A stretch of 13,046 nt of DNA, taken from IMG/VR virus record IMGVR_UViG_2657244971_000003. The stretch is one strand, 5' to 3'. Each line of letters starts with the position of its first letter. Position 1 is the first letter of the stretch. Under the pieces are notes generated by a model. The model did not search any database, had not been told where the DNA came from, and saw only the letters and a program-made list of their open reading frames with translations. Shown here piece by piece: positions 1,179 through 12,509 of the stretch. A program made the position numbers and the translations under genes. This DNA is from a virus (taxonomy: Duplodnaviria > Heunggongvirae > Uroviricota > Caudoviricetes).

Positions 1179-1244
1179 TTGACAGCCGCACTCCATGACG
1201 GGTAAAAAGTGGATAAAATAATTTTACCCACCGGATTTTTACCC
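1179..1244 (+). promoter_or_regulatory. Putative intS promoter overlapped by a cluster of GGGTAAAA / TTTTACCC motif copies (candidate Int arm-type or RDF binding sites)
   Basis: Perfect TTGACA at 1179-1184. About 18 bp downstream is a weak -10-like TAAAAA (1203-1208) that sits inside GGGTAAAAA (1200-1208). A near copy GGATAAAAT (1211-1219) and two inverted copies TTTTACCC (1222-1229) and TTTTTACCC (1236-1244) end at the intS ATG. The same motif recurs at 9727-9747 beside the torI-like gene. Confidence 0.45.
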
Positions 1245-2393
1245 ATGCTCACCGTTAAGCAGATTGAAGCAGCAAAGCCGAAAGAAAAACCATACCGCCT
1301 ACTCGATGGTAATGGCCTGTACCTTTATGTCCCTGTGTCAGGGAAAAAGGTATGGCAGCTTCGCTACAAGATTGACGGTAAGGAGAAAATCCTGACCGTA
1401 GGAAAATATCCGCTAATGACTTTGCAGGAGGCAAGAGATAAAGCATGGACCGCGAGGAAAGACATCTCGGTTGGCATCGATCCGGTAAAAGCGAAAAAGG
1501 CTTCGTCTAACAACAATTCCTTTAGTGCCATTTACAAGGAATGGTACGAGCACAAGAAGCAAGTCTGGTCAGTAGGCTATGCAACTGAACTTGCCAAAAT
1601 GTTTGATGACGACATTTTACCCATCATCGGCGGTCTTGAGATTCAGGATATTGAGCCGATGCAACTGCTGGAAGTAATCCGCAGATTTGAAGATCGCGGT
1701 GCAATGGAGCGAGCCAACAAAGCCCGCAGAAGATGCGGCGAGGTTTTCCGTTACGCCATTGTCACTGGTAGGGCTAAATATAACCCGGCACCTGACCTTG
1801 CTGACGCCATGAAGGGATACCGCAAGAAAAACTTCCCGTTTCTTCCTGCAGACCAGATCCCGGCATTTAACAAAGCACTGGCAACATTTTCAGGAAGCAT
1901 CGTATCGCTCATTGCGACCAAAGTTTTACGCTACACAGCCCTAAGAACGAAAGAGCTTCGTTCCATGCAATGGAAGAACGTCGATTTTGAAAACAGGATT
2001 ATCACTATCGACGCCAGTGTGATGAAGGGACGCAAGATTCATGTTGTCCCGATGTCGGACCAGGTGGTTGAACTTCTCACTACGCTAAGCTCAATCACCA
2101 AACCAGTATCAGAGTTTGTTTTTGCCGGGCGCAACGATAAGAAGAAGCCAATCTGCGAGAACGCGGTGCTACTTGTGATCAAACAAATCGGCTATGAGGG
2201 TCTGGAAAGCGGTCACGGATTCAGGCATGAATTCAGCACGATTATGAACGAGCACGGCTGGCCTGCTGATGCTATAGAGGTTCAGCTAGCCCACGCGACC
2301 GGTGGATCTGTTCGCGGAATTTACAATCACGCACAGTACATGGAAAAACGCCGCGAGATGATGCAGTGGTGGGCTGATTGGGTTGATTTGTGA
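1245..2393 (+). CDS. intS: P4-family tyrosine integrase (IntS-like), 382 aa
   Basis: ATG at 1245, in frame within the tracked ORF 1209-2393 (which begins at a GTG). N-terminus MLTVKQIEAAKPKEKPYRLLDGNGLYLYV is typical of the P4-integrase arm-binding domain. C-terminal region has the tyrosine-recombinase signature (HGFRHEF ... RGIYNHAQY). Position directly downstream of argW matches the IntS arrangement. Confidence 0.85.
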   Translation: MLTVKQIEAAKPKEKPYRLLDGNGLYLYVPVSGKKVWQLRYKIDGKEKILTVGKYPLMTLQEARDKAWTARKDISVGIDPVKAKKASSNNNSFSAIYKEWYEHKKQVWSVGYATELAKMFDDDILPIIGGLEIQDIEPMQLLEVIRRFEDRGAMERANKARRRCGEVFRYAIVTGRAKYNPAPDLADAMKGYRKKNFPFLPADQIPAFNKALATFSGSIVSLIATKVLRYTALRTKELRSMQWKNVDFENRIITIDASVMKGRKIHVVPMSDQVVELLTTLSSITKPVSEFVFAGRNDKKKPICENAVLLVIKQIGYEGLESGHGFRHEFSTIMNEHGWPADAIEVQLAHATGGSVRGIYNHAQYMEKRREMMQWWADWVDL

Positions 2394-2398
2394 ACCAG

Positions 2399-4357
2399 TT
2401 AATTTCTCAAAATAATATTACCAGTGGAGACAAACGAGAATATGAAGTTCCCGCGCGGCGTTCCGCCACCGGATGTATTTTGCTTCGGAAAAACCTGGAT
2501 GGAACCGAGCGCTGACATCTGAAATGTAAATGCCGGGGTATCATTTGTTATTACACTATCCTCAATAAACGAAATAACAGAAATGTTACCTATAGTCCCA
2601 GCCGACCTTTTGTATAACAGCTCATATATTGCACACTTTGTCTTGCTTGAGTTGTAAACTTGGCATGTGATTTTACCTGCACAGGATGACGCCGCATCGT
2701 TATCACTGTACGTCCCAACACCGACAACAGTTTTTGCAATACCTGACTCAACACTAACGGCTAACTCATTAGATGACTGAGACGATAAATTGTTATATCT
2801 GTCAGTTGTCAGCTTTTGAGCTGTTGAAACATTATCGTCGAGGAGCCTGGAGGCTACTGAATCGGCCTTAATATGCACCCCGCGAGACTGGCAACGCCCA
2901 AAAACTGCTGCACCGCCAGCGATAGAGACGCCTTTATGCGGAATTGAGGACAGGTCAACGCTACCGAAGTATGTCCTGTTTCCGCCATCACCACCAACCC
3001 TCTCGTCTATATTTCCAGGAACGACCCCTGCATATACCGCGCCTGAACCCACATTAATATCTAATATGTTACGGGTTGGTTTCTCTGCTGAAATAGAACC
3101 ATCTGCAATAGTTATGTTAGCGTAAATATCAGATGTACTCTCTATTCTCACTGCACTTGACGGTTGCTGCTGCCCACAGAATGCTATTTGATTAGATCCT
3201 GATATATTTAATGCAGCAGCCTGCCGTATAAATATCGCCTCTCTTCCACCTTCAAAATAATTGTTCGCTCCACTTATGTTTACCCACGCTGCTTTATCTA
3301 CATACAAATGATTTGAATGCGTTTTTGTGTTTCTGTCGGAATGCATTAAGTTATCTGAATAAATAAGACCATCAAGCTGCTCTGCTATAAACCCACCGTA
3401 CCGAGTAAACCAACCACGATTATTAGTGAATTTAAAATCATTATAGGCATACGCATGAGCATTATCGTGTTTCAGCTCAACTAATTTCCCGACATTAATG
3501 GCTGTCATGTTATCGATAGTGATAAGGCCTATTGCGTGAAATGGTGTTGTTGCGTCTGCAATGCCTTTGATTGCACAATCAACTCGAGTTGCTTTGATGT
3601 TAATGAAATCTATAAACCTTCCCTTTTTCAGCTTAAACCCGTAGTCACCACCAGGGGCAGTAGATGTAATCCCTATACCGTCAATGGTTTTAAGGGCCTC
3701 CCCCCTGCCGTCATTAATGATAAATGACAAATCTTGCAGCCAGCCGCCGCCAACAATATCACACAGTCTAGTCACCTCAATTGAAGCGCCCCCAAATTTC
3801 AACACCCCGCTAATGCCTAAGATAACCCCTTCATCTGAACACTTATGAACTGCATCAAGCAGCTTTTGAGGATCATTAATCACAGAAAATGAAAGCCCGA
3901 AATCTCTTGCGTCAATAACGGCTCTGTTTTCCAGGGAGTCTTTTAGAGTTTTCCCTCCGCCAACGCCAATTAATGAGCCATCTCCTTTCTTTAACTCATC
4001 ACGGAATCGTATTTCAAACTGGTCTGGATCATATTTCAATACATTCGGAAAATAGAACTGCTGCGCACCATATGCATCATAAACAGCCATAGAATGGCCT
4101 TGCACAGTTACGAATTTGGCAATCTGCCCGTTATATACCGGATATCCAGCAGCATTGATAACAATTGGCTGAGAAACAGGGACGTGAGATCCGTCTTCAT
4201 TCTCTACATAAACCTGAATCTGGTTTTCAGTATTTACCGGGTCCGTGTCAATTTTACCGATATAAATTTTGCCATTGGCTACGGCTTTAAAAGAACGCGC
4301 CATAGTGAAGATTTGCGAAGGCATCGATATAATCACATTGGCTGTAATGTCTGTCAT
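2399..4357 (-). CDS. Podovirus tailspike protein: P22-gp9-like N-terminal head-binding domain fused to a divergent receptor-binding domain, 652 aa
   Basis: N-terminal ~120 aa ([42 protein letters not shown]...[13 protein letters not shown]...NVLKYDPDQ) closely resembles the P22 tailspike head-binding domain as I recall it. The rest is Gly/Asn/Ser-rich, as expected for a beta-helix. GGAG lies about 10 nt upstream of the ATG at 4357. Receptor specificity cannot be called from sequence. Confidence 0.85.
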
Positions 4358-4414
4358 TTAATTTGCTCCAGATACAAGGAATCACCGAAGCATGGCTACG
4401 GTGAATTTTGGGCA

Positions 4415-4439
4415 TAAAAAAACCCAGCCGAAGCTGGGT
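4415..4439 (-). terminator. Rho-independent terminator downstream of ant (minus strand)
   Basis: On the minus strand: GC-rich hairpin CCCAGC-TTCG-GCTGGG (plus-strand 4423-4438) followed by a run of 7 T (complement of the A-run at 4416-4422). Confidence 0.55.
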
Positions 4440-4457
4440 CGTTGCGTTGGTTATCTG

Positions 4458-5381
4458 TCAGTAGTTATGTACTGAAGGAGGTAATTCTTTATTCTTAAGT
4501 CTCATCCATGCGGAAAGATTCGTTGGTCCGTCTGGCTCATTAATATCAACATCTCGTGTGTGATTGATTAAAACGTCTCTCGCCATTCCGATAACATACG
4601 AGAACTCATGACCGTAGTCGTAGCATCTGCCTGAATAGTTCGATTGAATTTGTTTTAGCGCCGGATACAGTTCGCGGAATAATGCCTGTGAGCGGTTGGC
4701 ATAATCCCATAACCATACAAGGCTGTTTGCTTCTTTTGCAGAAAGCTCGTTTGCTTTCTTCTCTTGTTTGCCGATTAACTCGCCTTCAAGCGGAACGCGA
4801 GCTGCAAGTGACAGAGCTTCGGTAAACTGCTCATCGCTGATTTCTTTGTATGAACACCCAAAATGAGATTTCAGTGACGACCACATGGTAATCATTGCCT
4901 TCGCCTGTTTTTCTTTTGGCAGAGACTGACCGCGACTCATGACGAGTTGTTTAATGGCTTCCTGCTGTTCAGTGGTGATTTTACCCGGCAACGCCTTTTT
5001 AGCTTTGCGTGGGTTAACTACATGGCCTTTAGTCCAGTAGTCGTATAGCACATCGTCACACTCTTCTTGATACTGGATTACATTGTCGCGGATTTCAGGG
5101 CGGACTTTGTTAGGGCTGATGGTTTGCAACCAGCCATTCAGTTTACGTAAAGCAAGGCAAATCATGGTCTGCACACCGCCAACTGAAGGTATTGCGATTT
5201 CCACAATTCCTTTAGCAAATCTTTGTTTTAACTTTGTAAACTGTGAAGCCCAATCCATACCCATTCCCTCAACGATAGGTTTCATTGGGGTGTACGGTTC
5301 GCCGTTGTGATTGACAACATAAAGCTCTGCGCCGTGGAATGGCACGTTGATAGTAGATACTGCTGTTGCTATACTTTTCAT
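4458..5381 (-). CDS. ant: Phage antirepressor (Ant-like), 307 aa
   Basis: N-terminus [17 protein letters not shown]...[27 protein letters not shown] resembles antirepressor N-terminal domains as I recall them. It lies between an arc-like gene and the tailspike, the P22 immI order. AGGAAT lies about 8 nt upstream of the ATG at 5381. Confidence 0.8.
5347..5375 (+). promoter_or_regulatory. Candidate promoter for a sar-like antisense RNA, inside the first codons of ant on the opposite strand
   Basis: TTGATA (5347-5352), 17-bp spacer, TATACT (5370-5375). The predicted start near 5382 is immediately antisense to the ant start codon (5379-5381). Confidence 0.4.
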
Positions 5382-5456
5382 GTCGTTAATTCCTATGCGT
5401 GGTTTTACGATACCGAAGCCCTGACTGTTCCAGCAGTTGGGGCTTCAACTTTTTTG
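5382..5456 (+). ncRNA. Putative sar-like small antisense RNA (~75 nt) complementary to the ant ribosome-binding region
   Basis: Runs from the predicted start (~5382) across the complement of the ant Shine-Dalgarno and ends at a plus-strand terminator: extended imperfect hairpin GAAGCCCTGACTG / CAGTTGGGGCTTC (5415-5446) followed by TTTTTT (5450-5455). P22 has a short Sar antisense RNA at the analogous position. Predicted from motifs only. Confidence 0.4.
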
Positions 5457-5687
5457 TCCAGCTTGTCCGAGTAAAAATCCAGATACATGCTCTACTGACT
5501 GGTCAACCTCAATTTTTCTGCCAGAAGTTAATGTAATAAGCGCACAATCGTCACCTGTGCCCTCTACCAACTCAATGTTTTGGCGTCTTATGGTGTATGT
5601 CGTTTTGTTTTTTTCGAATCTAATCCGCCACCAATCACTTGTCCTTCTGCTTTCAAACTTTGTTTTAGTTAGGGTTATAAAGCTCAT
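5445..5687 (-). CDS. Hypothetical 80-aa protein inserted between arc and ant, translationally coupled to arc
   Basis: Its ATG (5685-5687) overlaps the arc-like stop TGA (5684-5686) as ATGA. No recognisable motif. Product MSFITLTKTKFESRRTSDWWRIRFEKNK... is basic at the N-terminus and acidic in the middle. Confidence 0.5.
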   Translation of the reverse strand: MSFITLTKTKFESRRTSDWWRIRFEKNKTTYTIRRQNIELVEGTGDDCALITLTSGRKIEVDQSVEHVSGFLLGQAGQKS

Positions 5688-5824
5688 ACCGTTATCCCCT
5701 CTCTCTTCAGGCTATCCATCACCCGTTTAATTACTTCTGCGCTAAATGAGCGACACTCTTCCTTTGCTTTCTCTTCAAGGATTTTTTCTAACTTCTCTGG
5801 CATACGCAGTGTTTTTACCTTCAT
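5684..5824 (-). CDS. arc: Arc-like ribbon-helix-helix repressor, 46 aa
   Basis: Hand-translated (below the 60-aa floor of the ORF track): MKVKTLRMPEKLEKILEEKAKEECRSFSAEVIKRVMDSLKREGITV. C-terminal half resembles the P22 Arc C-terminus (...QRVMESFKKEGRIGA). GGAGAA lies about 6 nt upstream of the ATG. It is divergent from a Mnt-like gene. Confidence 0.7.
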   Translation of the reverse strand: MKVKTLRMPEKLEKILEEKAKEECRSFSAEVIKRVMDSLKREGITV

Positions 5825-5929
5825 TGCATTCTCCGTTGTATGTGGTACGCATACATAGTATTTAGGTACGCATTGATAGTCAATAGATACCTACATATCC
5901 TGTGGTAAAAAATTATTCAGGATGTGCCG
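5825..5929. promoter_or_regulatory. Divergent immI-like promoter/operator region between arc and mnt
   Basis: A 105-bp gap between divergent RHH repressor genes. 9-bp direct repeats GGTACGCAT at 5844-5852 and 5865-5873 are spaced 21 bp apart. An imperfect inverted repeat TGTATG...CATACA lies around 5838-5856. TTGATA is at 5873-5878. Confidence 0.5.
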
Positions 5930-6181
5930 ATGTCTGATCGTAAGTACAAAAACCCTCAAGTGAATCTGAGGCTTCCTGTAGAGATAAAGGAACGTCTTAT
6001 TGAACTGGCTGAGGCTAATTCTCGTTCATTAAATGCTGAGATGGTCGCGGCACTTGAAGCGTGGACAGAAAAAAATAAACACATTCAAGCACTAGACCTT
6101 GCAACTATAGCATCACGATTGATAGATCTTGAACACGATGTTGAGACACTGAAAACCATGTATGGTAAGGATGCAAAATGA
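5930..6181 (+). CDS. mnt: Mnt-like ribbon-helix-helix repressor, 83 aa from the ATG
   Basis: The tracked ORF begins at GTG 5924, but the ATG at 5930 has AGGA 8 nt upstream. N-terminus (NLRLPVEIKERLIELAEANSRSLNAEMVAALEAW) follows the Arc/Mnt pattern. Orientation is divergent from arc-ant, as in P22 immI. Confidence 0.7.
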   Translation: MSDRKYKNPQVNLRLPVEIKERLIELAEANSRSLNAEMVAALEAWTEKNKHIQALDLATIASRLIDLEHDVETLKTMYGKDAK

Positions 6182-6387
6182 ATAAAAAACAGTTTATTAA
6201 GTCAAAAACGTCAAGCAAGGAAGAGCTAGAGAAAGAGCTAAACTCCCTGAAATATGCTCTGTGTCTGGTTTACTCAAGACTGCCAATGGAAGATAAAAAC
6301 GCCATTTACAATGAAATGATTAGCAGCCTTGATTTTAACGATAGAGACCTAGCATCCCACCTCAACAGCTTCCGCGTCCCTGAGTAA
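6178..6387 (+). CDS. Hypothetical 69-aa protein translationally coupled to mnt
   Basis: Its ATG (6178-6180) overlaps the mnt stop TGA (6179-6181) as ATGA. Lys/Glu-rich N-terminus. No recognisable motif. Confidence 0.5.
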   Translation: MNKKQFIKSKTSSKEELEKELNSLKYALCLVYSRLPMEDKNAIYNEMISSLDFNDRDLASHLNSFRVPE

Positions 6388-6814: not shown

Positions 6815-7042
6815 GTGAAGCGATGGTTCCTCATAATTACTGTTTTCGCGATCATTTACACTATTTTCCCTGCATTAAAAGCACCAATGCAAATAATTTC
6901 ACTAGCAATAATTTCGATTGGTGCTTTCATTGCAGTAGCCGTACTTGTGTTTAAGGTTTTAAAGTTTTTAGTTTGGCTATCAAAAGATGATGGATGCAAA
7001 GTTCATCAAGAAAAAGAAGGCAAAATAACCAAAGTTGACTAA
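6815..7042 (+). CDS. Hypothetical small inner-membrane protein with two predicted transmembrane helices, 75 aa from GTG 6815
   Basis: AAGGAGG (6803-6809) lies 5 nt upstream of the in-frame GTG at 6815; the tracked ORF begins at ATG 6791 without an RBS. Two hydrophobic segments (WFLIITVFAIIYTIF and IISLAIISIGAFIAVAVLVF). Same strand as mnt, the position where P22-like phages carry exclusion genes. Confidence 0.5.
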   Translation: MKRWFLIITVFAIIYTIFPALKAPMQIISLAIISIGAFIAVAVLVFKVLKFLVWLSKDDGCKVHQEKEGKITKVD

Positions 7043-8718
7043 CTGTCACTAGCGAGCCATGTAATAATCCCCGTGCGGGCAATGGTTTTTGCTTCATCTG
7101 TTGATAAGGTTTTCTCCCATCTCTTAAATGCCCCAGATTGCATCAGTTTCCTTTCTATTGCGCGTCTCACTTCTGCTCTGTCTACTGGTGCGTTTTGCAG
7201 GCGAAATAGCATTGATTTAAACTCAGGAGAAGATAGCAGAGCATCAGCAGCCTTTATCCTGCTTGTTTTCCCTGACATCAATGCAGACGTTATCACCCCT
7301 GTTGCACCTACACCAGGGAGACCAGATAAGCTTGTAATACCTTCCGCCGCAGCAGCTTTTGAGGCTATTCCATAAATTTTTGCGAGACTACCCTTTTCTT
7401 TCAGAAAGTTATTAACTTGCTGATCCACAAGACTACTAGCATACTGCTTACCAGTATTGAGTCTATTCATAGCCTTAGCTGCTTGATAAATCGTATCAAG
7501 GCGCTTTGATGCATCTGTGCCAATAGCATCACGGAGAGCCTTCATATTGGCCCCATTGCGTGACATTCCGTTATACCATTTTACAAATCCATCAACTCCT
7601 AATTGCTGACCAGGTGATTTGGCATAGCTGGTAAATGCTTTATTCATTGAGGTGAGCGCAACTTCCTGCCGCATATCCTTTGGAATCGACTTCATTAATT
7701 GCCTAAAGTCGCCACCGTTTCCTTTTGCCATATTAACAACAGCACTTTCAACTTTTAGAATTGCTGATTGCTGAAGTTTTCTACCCAAGACGGTTACAGC
7801 ATCATCTTCAATGGATTTTCGTTTTTTTACCAACTCCTTACCAAGCGTCCATAATTCCCCTGCGCCATATTTTTCTGCGACAGCCTGTTGGTCATCTGTT
7901 ATGGCTGCATATAACTTTTTAAGAACACCTGTTTCTTCATCCTTGAATGGACCAGAGCCTTTGCCAATAGCTTGTCCAACCTGCTTTCTAGCGAGATCTA
8001 AACGCCCATACGTTGGCAAGGTGTTTGGATCAAGTCGGTTCAATGTCCGCTTCATTATTGGAGATAATTCATCAATTCCACCTATGTCATCAGCAAAATC
8101 CTCTAAAAAATTCAATGTATTAGTTGCCTCAATCCGGTCTCTTACAGGAACCTTTTCGGCAATTTTGTTGTAGATGTTATCTGACTGATTTTGTAATGAT
8201 GAAATGGTTTTATCAAAATTATCTGCAAGCCTGTCAGAAACCAGTTGCTTATCAAGGCTTCCCCCAAATGAAGTTATCATTTCATCAGCTTTTCTTCCTA
8301 ATTCAGTAATAAAACGCTTATGCGCCTCACTAATCTCTGTTCCAGGGAGACTTGCCACTGCATTATCAAGAGCCCTGACAGCAGGATTATTAGAGATCAT
8401 GCCTGGAGTGGCATAATTTTCCAGTTCTAGCTCACGAATAGCATTTATCGCGTTAAAATCAGGATTAACTTCATCGGCGAAATCTTGAATAGCTCGTTGC
8501 CCGCCGATAAATTTATTGTCCATTGCGCCAGTAGCTTTCTTTAACGTTGCTTTAGATGATTTACTACCCATCCCTACGGATGAGCGATAAATATCTCCGG
8601 CACTATTTTTAATTTTTCCTGCAATCTTCCCAAGCGCTGGACCAACAATCTCGGCTATCCGGTAACTCCGGATGGTTGGATAAGCTGTAGTGAGCAGATG
8701 CCTTCCGCAGGGGAACAA
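7039..8718 (-). CDS. P22 gp16-family DNA ejection/injection protein, probably 5'-truncated (possible pseudogene)
   Basis: Long, alpha-helix-rich, Ala/Lys-rich product. It sits upstream of the sieA/mnt-like region, where gene 16 lies in P22. The frame is open to 8718, where the tracked ORF begins at a TTG with no RBS; the first in-frame ATG (8569-8571) has only a weak RBS. Identity is from synteny and composition, not motif recognition. Confidence 0.55.
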   Translation of the reverse strand: MFPCGRHLLTTAYPTIRSYRIAEIVGPALGKIAGKIKNSAGDIYRSSVGMGSKSSKATLKKATGAMDNKFIGGQRAIQDFADEVNPDFNAINAIRELELENYATPGMISNNPAVRALDNAVASLPGTEISEAHKRFITELGRKADEMITSFGGSLDKQLVSDRLADNFDKTISSLQNQSDNIYNKIAEKVPVRDRIEATNTLNFLEDFADDIGGIDELSPIMKRTLNRLDPNTLPTYGRLDLARKQVGQAIGKGSGPFKDEETGVLKKLYAAITDDQQAVAEKYGAGELWTLGKELVKKRKSIEDDAVTVLGRKLQQSAILKVESAVVNMAKGNGGDFRQLMKSIPKDMRQEVALTSMNKAFTSYAKSPGQQLGVDGFVKWYNGMSRNGANMKALRDAIGTDASKRLDTIYQAAKAMNRLNTGKQYASSLVDQQVNNFLKEKGSLAKIYGIASKAAAAEGITSLSGLPGVGATGVITSALMSGKTSRIKAADALLSSPEFKSMLFRLQNAPVDRAEVRRAIERKLMQSGAFKRWEKTLSTDEAKTIARTGIITWLASDS

Positions 8719-9932: not shown

Positions 9933-9981
9933 GTGATGGTATAAGTGATGGTATTCCCCAGTTCGATATGCAGATACCATC
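9933..9981. promoter_or_regulatory. Repeat cluster upstream of the second integrase (candidate arm-type or operator sites)
   Basis: Tandem direct 10-mers GTGATGGTAT at 9933-9942 and 9945-9954, plus an inverted copy ATACCATC at 9974-9981. Confidence 0.4.
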
Positions 9982-10004
9982 AATTTACCAAAATGAGTAC
10001 AGAT

Positions 10005-11279
10005 ATGGCCATTAATGTGCTTTCCCCCAAACAGATAGAAAACGCCAAGCCGAAGACCAATGATTACAAACTTACCGATGGAGGGAGTTTGTATCTACTG
10101 GTACGAAAGACTGGTGGAAAATACTGGCGTATGAATTATCGTTTTGATGGAAAACAAGTGACATTGGCATTAGGGGTCTACCCAGATGTCTCACTTGCAA
10201 CAGCGCGGAAACGGCGTGATGAAGCCAGGCAACTACTAGCCGATGGTCGTGATCCTCGCGAAGCAAAGAAACCCAAAAAGGAAGACCCAATTTCCCCCAC
10301 GTTCGAGAGTGTTGCCAGAGAGTGGCATAGTGGAACGATGGGGCATCCTGAGTGGAAAGAGATCACCCGTAAAAAAATTCTCCGAGAAATGGAAAACCAC
10401 CTCTTTCCTGCCATCGGTTCAAAGCCTATCGATACGCTCAAAACCCGTGACTTGATGCCGATGCTGGTTGAGATGACTGAGAAAGGAATTGGTGCCACAA
10501 CGAGCCGTGTAAAAACCACTATGACGAGCATCTTCCGTTATGCCGTGCAACGTGGAATTGTCGATTACAACCCTGCCCACGATCTAAAAGGTGCAATTAC
10601 GGCCCCCAAAGTACGACATCGCCCCGCACTACCTCTCGAACGTTTACCTGAACTGTTAGCGAAAACGAGAAGTTACACGGGAAGACCATTGACTCGCCTA
10701 GCAGTTCTCTTTTCCCTGCACACTTTTGTGCGATCCAGCGAACTACGACATGCCAGATGGGAGGAGATCGACATTGAAAATGGGCTATGGACGATACCAG
10801 GACAACGTGAAGAGATCGCAGGGGTTAAATTCTCAGATCGGGGTGCAAAGATGGGGGCTGCTCATTATGTCCCGCTATCTAGTCAGGCTATCGGGGTACT
10901 GGAGGATATAAGGAAAATCAGTGGTGAATATCTGCTGGTTTTTCCCGGTGACAGCAACCCATATAAACCGATGAGCGAAAACACAGTTAATAAAGCACTG
11001 CGAACGATGGGTTACGACACTCAAACTGATGTTTGCTTGCATGGGTTCAGGGCGATGGCCTGCTCTGCACTGACCGAATCAGGACTCTGGTCACGCGATG
11101 CAGTTGAACGGCAGATGAGTCACCAAGAAAGAAACGAAGTGCGGGCAGCATATGTGCATCTTGCGCAGCACATGCAGGAACGCCGCAGAATGATGCAATG
11201 GTGGTCTAATTATCTGGAACTAAATAAGGACGAATTCCATGCTCCTTATGACTTATCAGGTATTAACATTATCAATTAA
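10005..11279 (+). CDS. P4-family tyrosine integrase, about 424 aa
   Basis: N-terminus MAINVLSPKQIENAKPKTNDYKLTDGGSLYLLVRKTGGKYWRMNYRFDGKQ is the P4-integrase arm-binding domain pattern. Catalytic region has HGFRAMACS and RAAYVH. The start could instead be ATG 9993; the tracked ORF begins at GTG 9945 inside the repeat cluster. Confidence 0.8.
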   Translation: MAINVLSPKQIENAKPKTNDYKLTDGGSLYLLVRKTGGKYWRMNYRFDGKQVTLALGVYPDVSLATARKRRDEARQLLADGRDPREAKKPKKEDPISPTFESVAREWHSGTMGHPEWKEITRKKILREMENHLFPAIGSKPIDTLKTRDLMPMLVEMTEKGIGATTSRVKTTMTSIFRYAVQRGIVDYNPAHDLKGAITAPKVRHRPALPLERLPELLAKTRSYTGRPLTRLAVLFSLHTFVRSSELRHARWEEIDIENGLWTIPGQREEIAGVKFSDRGAKMGAAHYVPLSSQAIGVLEDIRKISGEYLLVFPGDSNPYKPMSENTVNKALRTMGYDTQTDVCLHGFRAMACSALTESGLWSRDAVERQMSHQERNEVRAAYVHLAQHMQERRRMMQWWSNYLELNKDEFHAPYDLSGINIIN

Positions 11280-12293: not shown

Positions 12294-12509
12294 ATGACAT
12301 TAAAAACTTATCCTATCACTGGACATGCCCGCCCACGAGCTACTGCTGACTTTTTGCAAATAAGTACGGTTACTCTCTGGCGCTGGGAAAAGAACAATCC
12401 TGAATTTCCCAAATCTATACGCATTTCAAAACGGGTATCTGTTTACGATGCACAAGAAATTAGGCAGTGGGTTAAAGCTCAATCAGCAGGATTGGAGGAA
12501 GTAGTGTAA
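12294..12509 (+). CDS. AlpA-family phage regulatory protein / excisionase-like HTH protein, 71 aa
   Basis: ISTVTLWRWEKNNPEFPKSIRISKRVSVYDAQEIRQWV fits the AlpA/Xis-like winged-helix pattern. A hairpin CTGCCGT...ACGGCAG (12258-12285) lies just upstream. Confidence 0.65.
   Translation: MTLKTYPITGHARPRATADFLQISTVTLWRWEKNNPEFPKSIRISKRVSVYDAQEIRQWVKAQSAGLEEVV

Follow-up and report, generated by a model that had tools for sequence, protein, structure and literature searches.

An 80-residue protein gene in a cassette site between arc and sar of the P22-like immI operon

In this study, we investigated an 80-aa open reading frame, ORF80, which lies between arc and ant in a 13,046-nt stretch of DNA (the window, by which the whole analysed stretch is meant). 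Comparison of homologous sequences marks ORF80 as a genuine protein-coding gene under purifying selection, and aligned loci identify the interval that holds it, which is bounded by the stop codon of arc and by the foot of the sar terminator hairpin, as a fixed site of the P22-like immI operon, which we call the socket. Taking these lines of evidence jointly, we consider it on balance probable that ORF80 is a genuine and swappable cargo of this socket, which would serve as an early accessory effector outside the Arc/Ant/Mnt circuit and not as a core regulator of ant.

Genomic setting and components of the immI region

The window represents an Escherichia-type chromosomal segment with the late-right end of a P22-like prophage (Lederbergvirus, CUS-3-like) on the minus strand, and its features are collected in Table 1. 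A second integrase gene and an AlpA gene are located beyond the gp16-like ejection protein gene. The prophage in the window is degraded. Among public sequences, the complete genomes of E. coli PSS-11 and B4103-1 came closest, and the PGAP annotation of each presents ORF80 as a hypothetical protein flanked by two 'Arc family' genes and an antirepressor.

The sar, Psar, arc, ant and mnt elements are all intact in the window. The mnt product additionally matches phrog_795 at 95 bits, a family for which the PHROG label reads 'partition protein ATPase'. The divergent, overlapping promoter-like sites at 5855-5901 would correspond, by analogy with P22 immI, to Pant and Pmnt. With reference to the 63-nt spacer between ORF80 and ant, which had been described from the sequence alone as an intercistronic region containing a hairpin, the hairpin is indeed present, but the whole spacer is the sar gene, which that description had missed. 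It was recovered as a full-length match to RF00262 (1-68) at 5383-5450 on the plus strand, with 81.2 bits and an E-value of 4e-16 (gathering score 43). The fold of sar was calculated at -28.4 kcal/mol with a z-score of -5.1 and displays two stem-loops, as expected of this RNA, and the position of the Psar-like promoter fits a sar 5' end at 5383. The RNA shows complementarity with the ribosome-binding site of ant and with the final ORF80 codons (CAA AAA AGT), the latter being the complement of the sar terminator U-tract.

Table 1. Features of the window, in order of position
Feature	Position	Strand	Evidence or detail
yfdC	1-933
tRNA-Arg(CCT)	1009-1083
intS	1209-2393
Tailspike gene	2399-4357	-	Head_binding, 217 bits
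ant, 307-aa antirepressor	4458-5381	-	Pfam P22_AR_N 151.6 bits, P22_AR_C 101 bits; phrog_245
Psar-like promoter, TTGATA-17-TATACT with TG	5347-5375	+	Consensus scan, 10/12 matches
sar antisense RNA gene, two stem-loops	5383-5456	+	Rfam RF00262, terminator scan, fold
ant SD (AGGA)	5391-5394
sar terminator	14-bp stem 5415-5446, AAC, then T6 5450-5455	+	Terminator scan
ORF80, 80 aa, 9.2 kDa, pI 9.4	5445-5687	-
ATGA overlap	5684-5687	-	arc stop TGA 5686-5684 / ORF80 ATG 5687-5685, 3 bases in common
arc, 46-aa ribbon-helix-helix repressor, first Pant-operon gene	5684-5824	-	Pfam Arc PF03869 37 bits; phrog_228
SD-like GAGAGGGG in final arc codons (R-E-G)	5703-5696	-	8 nt upstream of ORF80 start
Pant-like and Pmnt-like sites, divergent and overlapping	Pant 5883-5855; Pmnt 5873-5901	Pant -; Pmnt +	Consensus scan
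mnt, 83-aa ribbon-helix-helix repressor of Pant in lysogens	5930-6181	+	Pfam Arc family 40 bits; PGAP
gp16-like ejection protein gene	7039-8718

Position of ORF80 and its probable coupling to arc

The sequence-only reading had described an 80-aa frame between arc and ant whose start overlaps the arc stop as ATGA, and our coordinates agree with it; its further statement that the gene is extra relative to P22, inserted between arc and ant, was confirmed by comparison with P22-type loci. On the minus strand, the arc/ORF80 junction reads ...GAGAGGGGATAACGGTATGAGC..., and the ORF80 stop codon occupies 5447-5445, its G and A being the first two bases of the hairpin. The translational coupling to arc that had been proposed from this single locus was also supported, since the ATGA or GTGA overlap is present in every ORF80 copy as well as in seven other cassette types (47 loci). 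This conserved 4-nt start/stop overlap is strong comparative evidence that ORF80 is translationally coupled to arc. Additionally, the consensus scan recorded no promoter-like site on the minus strand from Pant to ORF80, and the terminator scan recorded no terminator between ORF80 and ant.

Distribution and conservation of ORF80

Homologs of ORF80 were detected in Salmonella enterica at 96% (P0001 type) and 85% (P0002 type) amino-acid identity, and in eight Salmonella loci the gene is situated between an Arc gene of 50 or 52 aa and an Ant gene of the P22_AR_N or KilA-N type. The same placement between arc and ant was observed in all 11 loci that were fetched and in 2 IMG/VR loci. ORF80 loci are carried by, among others, Salmonella GCA_015878945.1 and GCA_010507395.1, the latter of which also retains its late region, tailspike and gtr genes. 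Relative to the window, the 96% group shows 7 changes in 243 nt, zero indels and a dN/dS of 0.19; the 85% group shows 28-29 changes in 243 nt, again with zero indels, a replacement of ATGA by GTGA, a dS of 0.33-0.36, a dN of 0.079 and a dN/dS of 0.22-0.24. The reading frame, first seen in one sequence, is thus conserved, remaining open at approximately 12% nucleotide divergence without indels and with a dN/dS of about 0.2. A 97-aa antisense ORF (5437-5730, plus strand) was also considered and rejected, as it carries an internal stop in the Salmonella ORF80 homologs.

An identical ORF80 protein is encoded on at least 1000 public contigs of E. coli, E. albertii and Salmonella, and some copies already bear the label 'FlbD family' or 'YlzI' (NCBI and another source). 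Among 5,426 complete E. coli genomes, ORF80 is found in 2 and the flanking immI sequence in 702. A tblastn search of ORF80 against 50,697 phage genome records disclosed no match in an isolated phage, a word-indexed search of 5.8 billion proteins returned two ORF80 clusters only, and a HMMER scan of 1.84 billion representatives gave nothing beyond the ORF80 family and two repeat-protein artefacts. Within its distribution, ORF80 is paired with three Arc N-terminal types and four Ant N-terminal types.

It could be argued from some of these observations that ORF80 is not expressed as a functional protein, and that mosaic filler or a remnant in decay accounts for its 237 nt, which would be open by chance. 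The prophage of the window is degraded, no isolated sequenced phage carries the gene, and some members of the ORF80 clusters are frameshifted (P0135, P0136), from which it follows that loss is tolerated, at least in decaying prophages. Nevertheless, the low dN/dS and the lack of indels between diverged copies, the conserved start overlap, the occurrence of the exact sequence in three species, and a match to the FlbD profile that stands at a z-score of about 10 against shuffled queries (see below) render such a reading highly improbable.

The socket between arc and the sar hairpin

The immI flanks matched many genomes but the middle did not, and representatives were for that reason aligned with one another. 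Near-perfect identity was observed through arc to ...GGGGATAACGGT(A/G)TGA and was regained at ...AAA(AGT/CAG)TGAAGCCCC, which is the hairpin; among the aligned representatives, the sequence between the arc stop and TGAAGCCCC is unrelated and the boundaries are sharp. A scan of IMG/VR for the sar hairpin yielded 120 loci, in 111 of which arc was found by tblastn, and the socket length, defined as the number of nt that separate the arc stop and the hairpin, was measured in these 111 loci (Table 2). Cassettes are present in 47 of the 111 sar-bearing loci and comprise at least eight mutually unrelated small ORFs, all of which start with ATGA or GTGA on the arc stop and end with the TGA that opens the hairpin. 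The direct succession of arc and ant, which the sequence-only reading had taken as the P22 paradigm, is the commonest state (61 of 111 sar-bearing loci, 55%). The window does not have this adjacency, as 237 nt of coding sequence separate its arc stop from the sar-target hairpin.

Table 2. Socket lengths in 111 IMG/VR loci with an arc match
Arc stop to hairpin	Loci	Content
-2 to 7 nt	61	No cassette (P22 state)
33 nt	3	Deletion scar
168 nt	8	57-aa ORF
177 nt	2	60-aa ORF
186 nt	1	63-aa ORF
198 nt	15	67-aa ORF (type B)
199 nt	5	Frameshifted type B
216 nt	6	73-aa ORF (type D)
219 nt	2	74-aa ORF
237 nt	2	ORF80 (type A)
264 nt	6	89-aa membrane/coiled-coil ORF

The 33-nt state (type C) is what is left of the 57-aa cassette after an in-frame loss of 135 nt between CTTG(G)ATGC repeats, and it is therefore regarded as a scar and not as the ancestral empty site. 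All the cassette-bearing loci have a common arc 3' end (..KRVMDSLKREGITV), which encodes ..KR(V/L)xDSLKR(E/D)G(I/V)x(V/I) and was seen together with the 46-aa MKVKTLRMPEKLE type, the ISKILVRMPQSLKD type and the P22 MPQFNLRWPKE type of Arc; the P22-type Arc without a cassette has the C-terminus ..ESFKKEGRIGA. Since this 3' end is common whatever the rest of Arc may be, it points to a left recombination arm inside arc, which would bring the SD and the start codon with it. The left arm consists of the last ~14 arc codons, including the SD-like GAGAGGGG, with the sar terminator forming the right arm. As both arms are conserved around unrelated inserts, the cassettes can be swapped by homologous recombination, and one Arc allele was found with several different cassettes. 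The counts in complete E. coli genomes were 373 for type B, 51 for type D and 2 for type A (ORF80).

With respect to the contents of the other cassettes, type B is the commonest and is a zinc ribbon, a 67-aa CxxC...CxxC ORF, which is unannotated in the 373 complete E. coli genomes and likewise in CUS-3, where the 'bsq2' feature contains it, and in strain ws5-3. The 73-aa ORF of type D is annotated as orf73 in the isolated phage Emek. With 43 bits against PF06689 (gathering score 27), the 60-aa cassette ORF is a true ClpX-type C4 zinc finger; matches to this model were weak for the 74- and 63-aa ORFs, and phrog_5259 was matched by the 60-, 63- and 67-aa ORFs. The 57-, 67-, 73- and 89-aa ORFs have PHROGs of their own, to which no function is assigned there. 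No match was obtained from PADLOC for any cassette ORF, ORF80 included. When type D was compared with the FlbD profile, the score was weak and above the shuffles (17.9 versus a maximum of 16.6), and direct homology of cassettes A and D was not established by BLASTP or hhalign.

These cassettes bear on whether arc and ORF80 might be a toxin-antitoxin-like pair of type II, with a ribbon-helix-helix antitoxin gene and, overlapping its end, a small toxin gene, as the gene order, the 4-nt overlap and the ribbon-helix-helix autoregulation resemble those of type II operons. We rejected this reading, which is scarcely credible, because the identical 46-aa Arc precedes unrelated partners, namely ORF80, the zinc-ribbon cassette and the 57-aa cassette, and also the scar. 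Moreover, the 46-aa Arc is a ribbon-helix-helix domain alone, lacking a toxin-binding tail, and ORF80 has no match to toxin families in Pfam, NCBIfam or PADLOC.

Probable family and predicted fold of ORF80

The sequence-only reading had seen no recognisable motif in ORF80. This holds in part, for a sub-threshold Pfam match to FlbD (PF06289) exists at residues 27-68, with an E-value of 1.7e-4 and 21.5 bits, below the gathering score of 24.7. When the ORF80 family was compared by hhalign with 40 real FlbD proteins, a probability of 91.8%, an E-value of 7.5e-7 and 37% identity over 41 columns were obtained; the score of 36.0 compares with 10.2 +/- 2.4 (maximum 21.7) for 200 column-shuffled queries, which gives the z-score of about 10, and a reversed ORF80 query scored 9.0. 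In the MAFFT alignment, residues 3-9 of ORF80 (FITLTKT) align to FlbD strand 1 (MIKLTRL) and the core aligns as well, and residues 10-26 constitute a 17-residue basic insertion (KFESRRTSDWWRIRFEK) that belongs to the first beta-hairpin and precedes the core. The FlbD residues I19, E20, E23, D27, G35, K37 and V40 are kept in ORF80. FlbD N15, P26 and T28 are not kept, the family-invariant Asn15 and Pro26 being replaced by R34 and G45, so that the FlbD motifs Asn15-xxx-Ile/Leu19 and Pro-Asp-Thr appear in ORF80 as R34...I38 and G45-D46-D47.

Structure prediction with AF2 from the three-sequence alignment of the ORF80 family gave a pLDDT of 41.7, which is unusable. With ORF80 and 87 FlbD proteins, the best model reached a pLDDT of 82.6 and a pTM of 0.63 (61-64 for the other four), and since this alignment is FlbD-dominated, the confident model is homology-guided and not independent evidence. 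The best model predicts a long beta-hairpin (3-15/22-34), a 3-10 turn, strands at 38-43, 49-53 and 58-61, and a helix at 65-72. Profile comparison and the guided model together suggest that ORF80 is a divergent representative of the SwrD/FlbD-RemA-LytTR beta-fold that carries a conserved, strongly basic hairpin insertion. The charge of the protein is bipolar, with +7 over residues 1-37 and -4 over residues 38-80.

A sequence search of the PDB with ORF80 gave nothing significant, NCBIfam gave no match, and PHROGs holds no family of its own for this protein. Residues 12-24 (ESRRTSDWWRIRF) resemble the CENP-C motif (Pfam E 0.08, PDB E 0.3-1.2), which was judged to be due to chance. In BFVD, many phage proteins of 60-99 aa display the fold of the ORF80 model with weak E-values, and several of them are labelled 'flagellar and swarming motility protein'. 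A search for canonical FlbD genes in sequenced phages disclosed one unannotated match, which is uninformative on context.

From this family relationship, which is distant and statistically supported, it might be proposed that ORF80 keeps the SwrD/FlbD function and acts on the host flagellar motor or on flagellar gene expression in infection, the more so as the hosts E. coli and Salmonella are flagellated and have no SwrD of their own (PMC13232269). The mechanism of SwrD is itself unresolved, however, and its predicted interaction with MotA could not be validated (PMC13232269). Key residues of the FlbD family are lost in ORF80, and the gene lies outside any flagellar operon. Furthermore, the receptor of P22-like phages is the O-antigen, not flagella. 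We therefore hold a flagellar role to be very unlikely.

Proposed expression and role of ORF80

In P22, Pant is silenced by Mnt in lysogens, fires upon infection and is then turned off by Arc, and translation of ant is blocked by sar. The region is also read through by late transcription (PMC2629481, PMC12111858). ORF80 would be transcribed together with arc and ant from Pant, in a short post-infection burst that lasts until the Arc shutoff, and probably by late read-through as well. Ribosomes ending on arc would reinitiate 1 nt upstream at AUGA, and ORF80 would be made only when arc is translated. The cassette frame, by ending at the hairpin foot, would mimic the end of arc in P22; with a ribosome still terminating at this point, the control of ant by sar should be unchanged, and as the cassette is coding up to the hairpin foot, the extra 237 nt would leave no untranslated, polarity-prone gap.

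Two roles had been suggested for the frame when it was first noticed, namely modulation of antirepressor control and a small effector co-expressed whenever Arc is. In the former case, ORF80 would be a dedicated immI modulator that tunes antirepressor output in proportion to Arc, by binding Ant, Arc, the c2 repressor, the Pant/Pmnt operators or the sar/ant RNA duplex. Its place inside the arc-ant operon with coupling to arc, the DNA binding of its fold relatives RemA and LytTR, the strongly basic N-terminal half of the protein and the coverage of its final codons by sar would all be in keeping with such a role. Nevertheless, the slot is empty in P22 and in more than half of the sar-bearing loci and elsewhere holds unrelated proteins, ORF80 does not co-vary with the circuit in view of the several Arc and Ant types with which it is paired, and it is present in just 2 of the 702 immI-bearing complete E. 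coli genomes. These observations speak against modulation of the antirepressor, which we consider unlikely.

The latter role, a small effector co-expressed with Arc, is the one that the comparative evidence favours. As the slot can be dispensed with and holds unrelated contents, and as co-variation with Arc and Ant is absent, ORF80 is best read as accessory cargo, and its action most likely lies outside immI, to judge from the absent co-variation and the diversity of the cassettes. An accessory effector of this kind would appear within minutes of the onset of infection and, as a small oligomer, would target nucleic acid or protein of the host. The parallel with SwrD, RemA and LytTR suggests that the conserved basic hairpin of ORF80 may bind a nucleic acid or protein partner.

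Downstream of mnt there also appears to be a similar socket. On a wider and speculative view, which we think rather unlikely as a whole, the arc-sar interval and the mirror-image post-mnt socket would constitute a dedicated launch pad for timed, swappable effectors, in which ORF80 would be a phage-borne ring protein of the SwrD type and its sister cassettes would be ClpX zinc-finger decoys, all disabling or re-programming host machines or countering defences. If this were true, cargo coupled to arc would be delivered within minutes of infection and cargo coupled to mnt during lysogeny, and the flagellar stator, nucleoid-associated DNA and ClpXP adaptor traffic would be possible targets.

Novelty and significance

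The variability of this region is not new, since the 'ant moron' is known to be hypervariable (PMC2629481). Our literature searches disclosed no account of ORFs located between arc and ant or of an in-operon arc-sar socket, and no report of translationally coupled socket cargo or of the arc and coupled ORF of CUS-3. The immI region of P22 is a textbook example of a regulatory circuit, and Arc has long served as a model protein. This circuit would gain a new layer from a recombination socket, located where arc ends, with at least eight coupled small genes, and the socket would provide a catalogue of small phage proteins with their expression timing (the early burst) but not their targets. ORF80, for its part, would take the poorly understood SwrD/FlbD fold into enterobacterial phages, which are believed to lack the family. 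In practical terms, the value of these results is modest as long as no phenotype is available.

Comparison with known systems

With reference to the wider fold, ORF80 differs from RemA and LytTR (PDB 7bme, 3bs1) in that it does not have the RemA-type helical insertion bearing the DNA-binding arginines, and the identity is 16-22%. It shares with SwrD/FlbD (PF06289) the I-E-x-V-E, D, ITLTxG-K-x-x-V and SVE motifs, and the FlbD-guided model would also have the same strand order, with beta1-beta2, a short 3-10 turn, beta3-5 and a C-terminal helix, and the same structural neighbours, RemA and AgrA-LytTR. Crystal structures of SwrD from B. subtilis and Borrelia show hexameric rings with the topology that is predicted by the guided ORF80 model (PMC13232269). 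ORF80 departs from this family in its sub-threshold match, in the 17-residue basic insertion and the replaced Asn15/Pro26, and in being located in an enterobacterial phage regulatory operon and not in a flagellar (fla/che) operon.

At the level of the genome, the region from the ejection protein genes to the tailspike of P22-like phages has been described as highly mosaic, ten types being distinguished among sixteen genomes (the ant moron; Villafane, Casjens et al. 2008, PMC2629481). That account deals with the gain and loss of whole genes, and a fixed in-operon arc-sar socket is absent from it. The socket cassettes are not classical morons, because they have no promoter or terminator of their own. 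CUS-3 was said to be without arc (PMC2629481), contrary to which its 'bsq2' feature contains a 46-aa arc and a coupled 67-aa ORF.

A close likeness also exists with the immI region of P22. The window harbors its Mnt and Arc counterparts, both of the ribbon-helix-helix kind, together with divergent promoter-like sites, an Ant of the P22 type and a sar gene that is full-length and has both promoter and terminator. In both systems a reading frame stops at the foot of the sar-target hairpin, that of arc in P22 and that of ORF80 here. The window differs from P22 in the 237-nt coding cassette between arc and the hairpin, and in an Arc that is a 46-aa allele with the C-terminus ..DSLKREGITV, which carries the SD and the start codon of ORF80.

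Cassettes between arc and ant

Every cassette ORF, the interchangeable small ORF lying between the arc stop and the hairpin foot of the antisense RNA gene sar, was observed to end in two or three codons (KS*, KQ*, ES*, KR*) that are complementary to the U-tract of the sar terminator, and the GA of the stop TGA is common to the hairpin foot, both at window 5445-5456 and at the equivalent positions of all cassette loci. Proteins that are unrelated to one another thus have their C-terminal residues imposed by the terminator of an antisense RNA.

With regard to cassette identity, the cassette found in IMG/VR where arc and the hairpin lie 177 nt apart is a genuine C4 zinc finger of the ClpX type (PF06689, 43 bits, E 4e-11). 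The 63-, 67- and 74-aa cassettes, which have weak PF06689 matches and/or phrog_5259 in common, look like relatives. A free ClpX zinc-binding domain would here be encoded for production together with Arc.

The apparently empty arc-ant junction that is common in E. coli has a 33-nt gap and the peptide VIRLDAAKKSKQ. Its reading as an ancestral empty site was rejected, as this state is the 57-aa cassette minus 135 nt, lost in frame between CTTG(G)ATGC direct repeats, and is thus a deletion scar. The type B cassette (67 aa, CxxC...CxxC) is frameshifted in five IMG/VR loci with a 199-nt gap, in three of which arc is likewise disrupted; these look like decaying prophages losing the whole Pant operon.

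Within the 80-aa ORF of the window, residues 12-24 (ESRRTSDWWRIRF) are similar to the nucleosome-binding CENP-C motif (SRRPSDWWVV), with scores of E 0.08 for Pfam CENP-C_mid and E 0.3-1.2 for PDB CENP-C peptides. The stretch is unchanged across all intact members of the ORF family, and the resemblance is probably due to chance.

The socket behind mnt and the prophage arrangement

We also found that mnt has a coupled socket of its own. The start of a 69-aa ORF (phrog_16466) and the mnt stop share an ATGA overlap in the window, and the ORF after mnt begins at such an overlap in 31 of the 109 loci with an Mnt hit; at loci with a P22-type mnt there is no such ORF. These mnt-coupled ORFs are of at least six unrelated kinds (69, 90, 104/105, 111, 121 and 193 aa), two with signal-peptide-like N-termini.

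The tailspike gene directly adjoins intS, an order also found in strain B4103-1. Such a junction is expected for a circular phage genome, not for an integrated P22-like prophage. Together with the second integrase and AlpA gene after the gp16-like ORF, it indicates that the window prophage is rearranged or truncated and adjoins another integrative element.

Coordinates of features in the window and in compared loci (L-numbers)
Feature	Record	Position	Strand
intS-tailspike	window	1209-4357	
CENP-C-like stretch	window	5616-5654	-
69-aa mnt-coupled ORF	window	6178-6387	+
gp16-like ORF	window	7039-8718	
Second integrase	window	9945-11279	
AlpA gene	window	12294-12509	
mnt-coupled ORF	L002	8879-9460	
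mnt-coupled ORF	L004	2340-2705	
mnt-coupled ORF	L006	2357-2674	
mnt-coupled ORF	L007 (Salmonella GCA_015878945.1)	5235-5507	
33-nt junction	L005	1681-1582 region	
33-nt junction	L134		
33-nt junction	L099		
arc + 67-aa ORF region	L001 (CUS-3, CP000711)	about 4147-4487	
67-aa ORF	CUS-3, CP000711	6562-6762 (record)	
arc + 67-aa ORF region	L004	1646-1986	

Comparison with phage CUS-3

The DNA of the 67-aa CxxC...CxxC ORF (phrog_7150) was found in 373 of 5,426 complete E. coli genomes, and the ORF is without annotation ('none') among the RefSeq matches listed. Coupled to a 46-aa arc, it lies inside the 'bsq2 boundary sequence' of CUS-3, a phage without arc according to the 2008 epsilon34 paper (PMC2629481).
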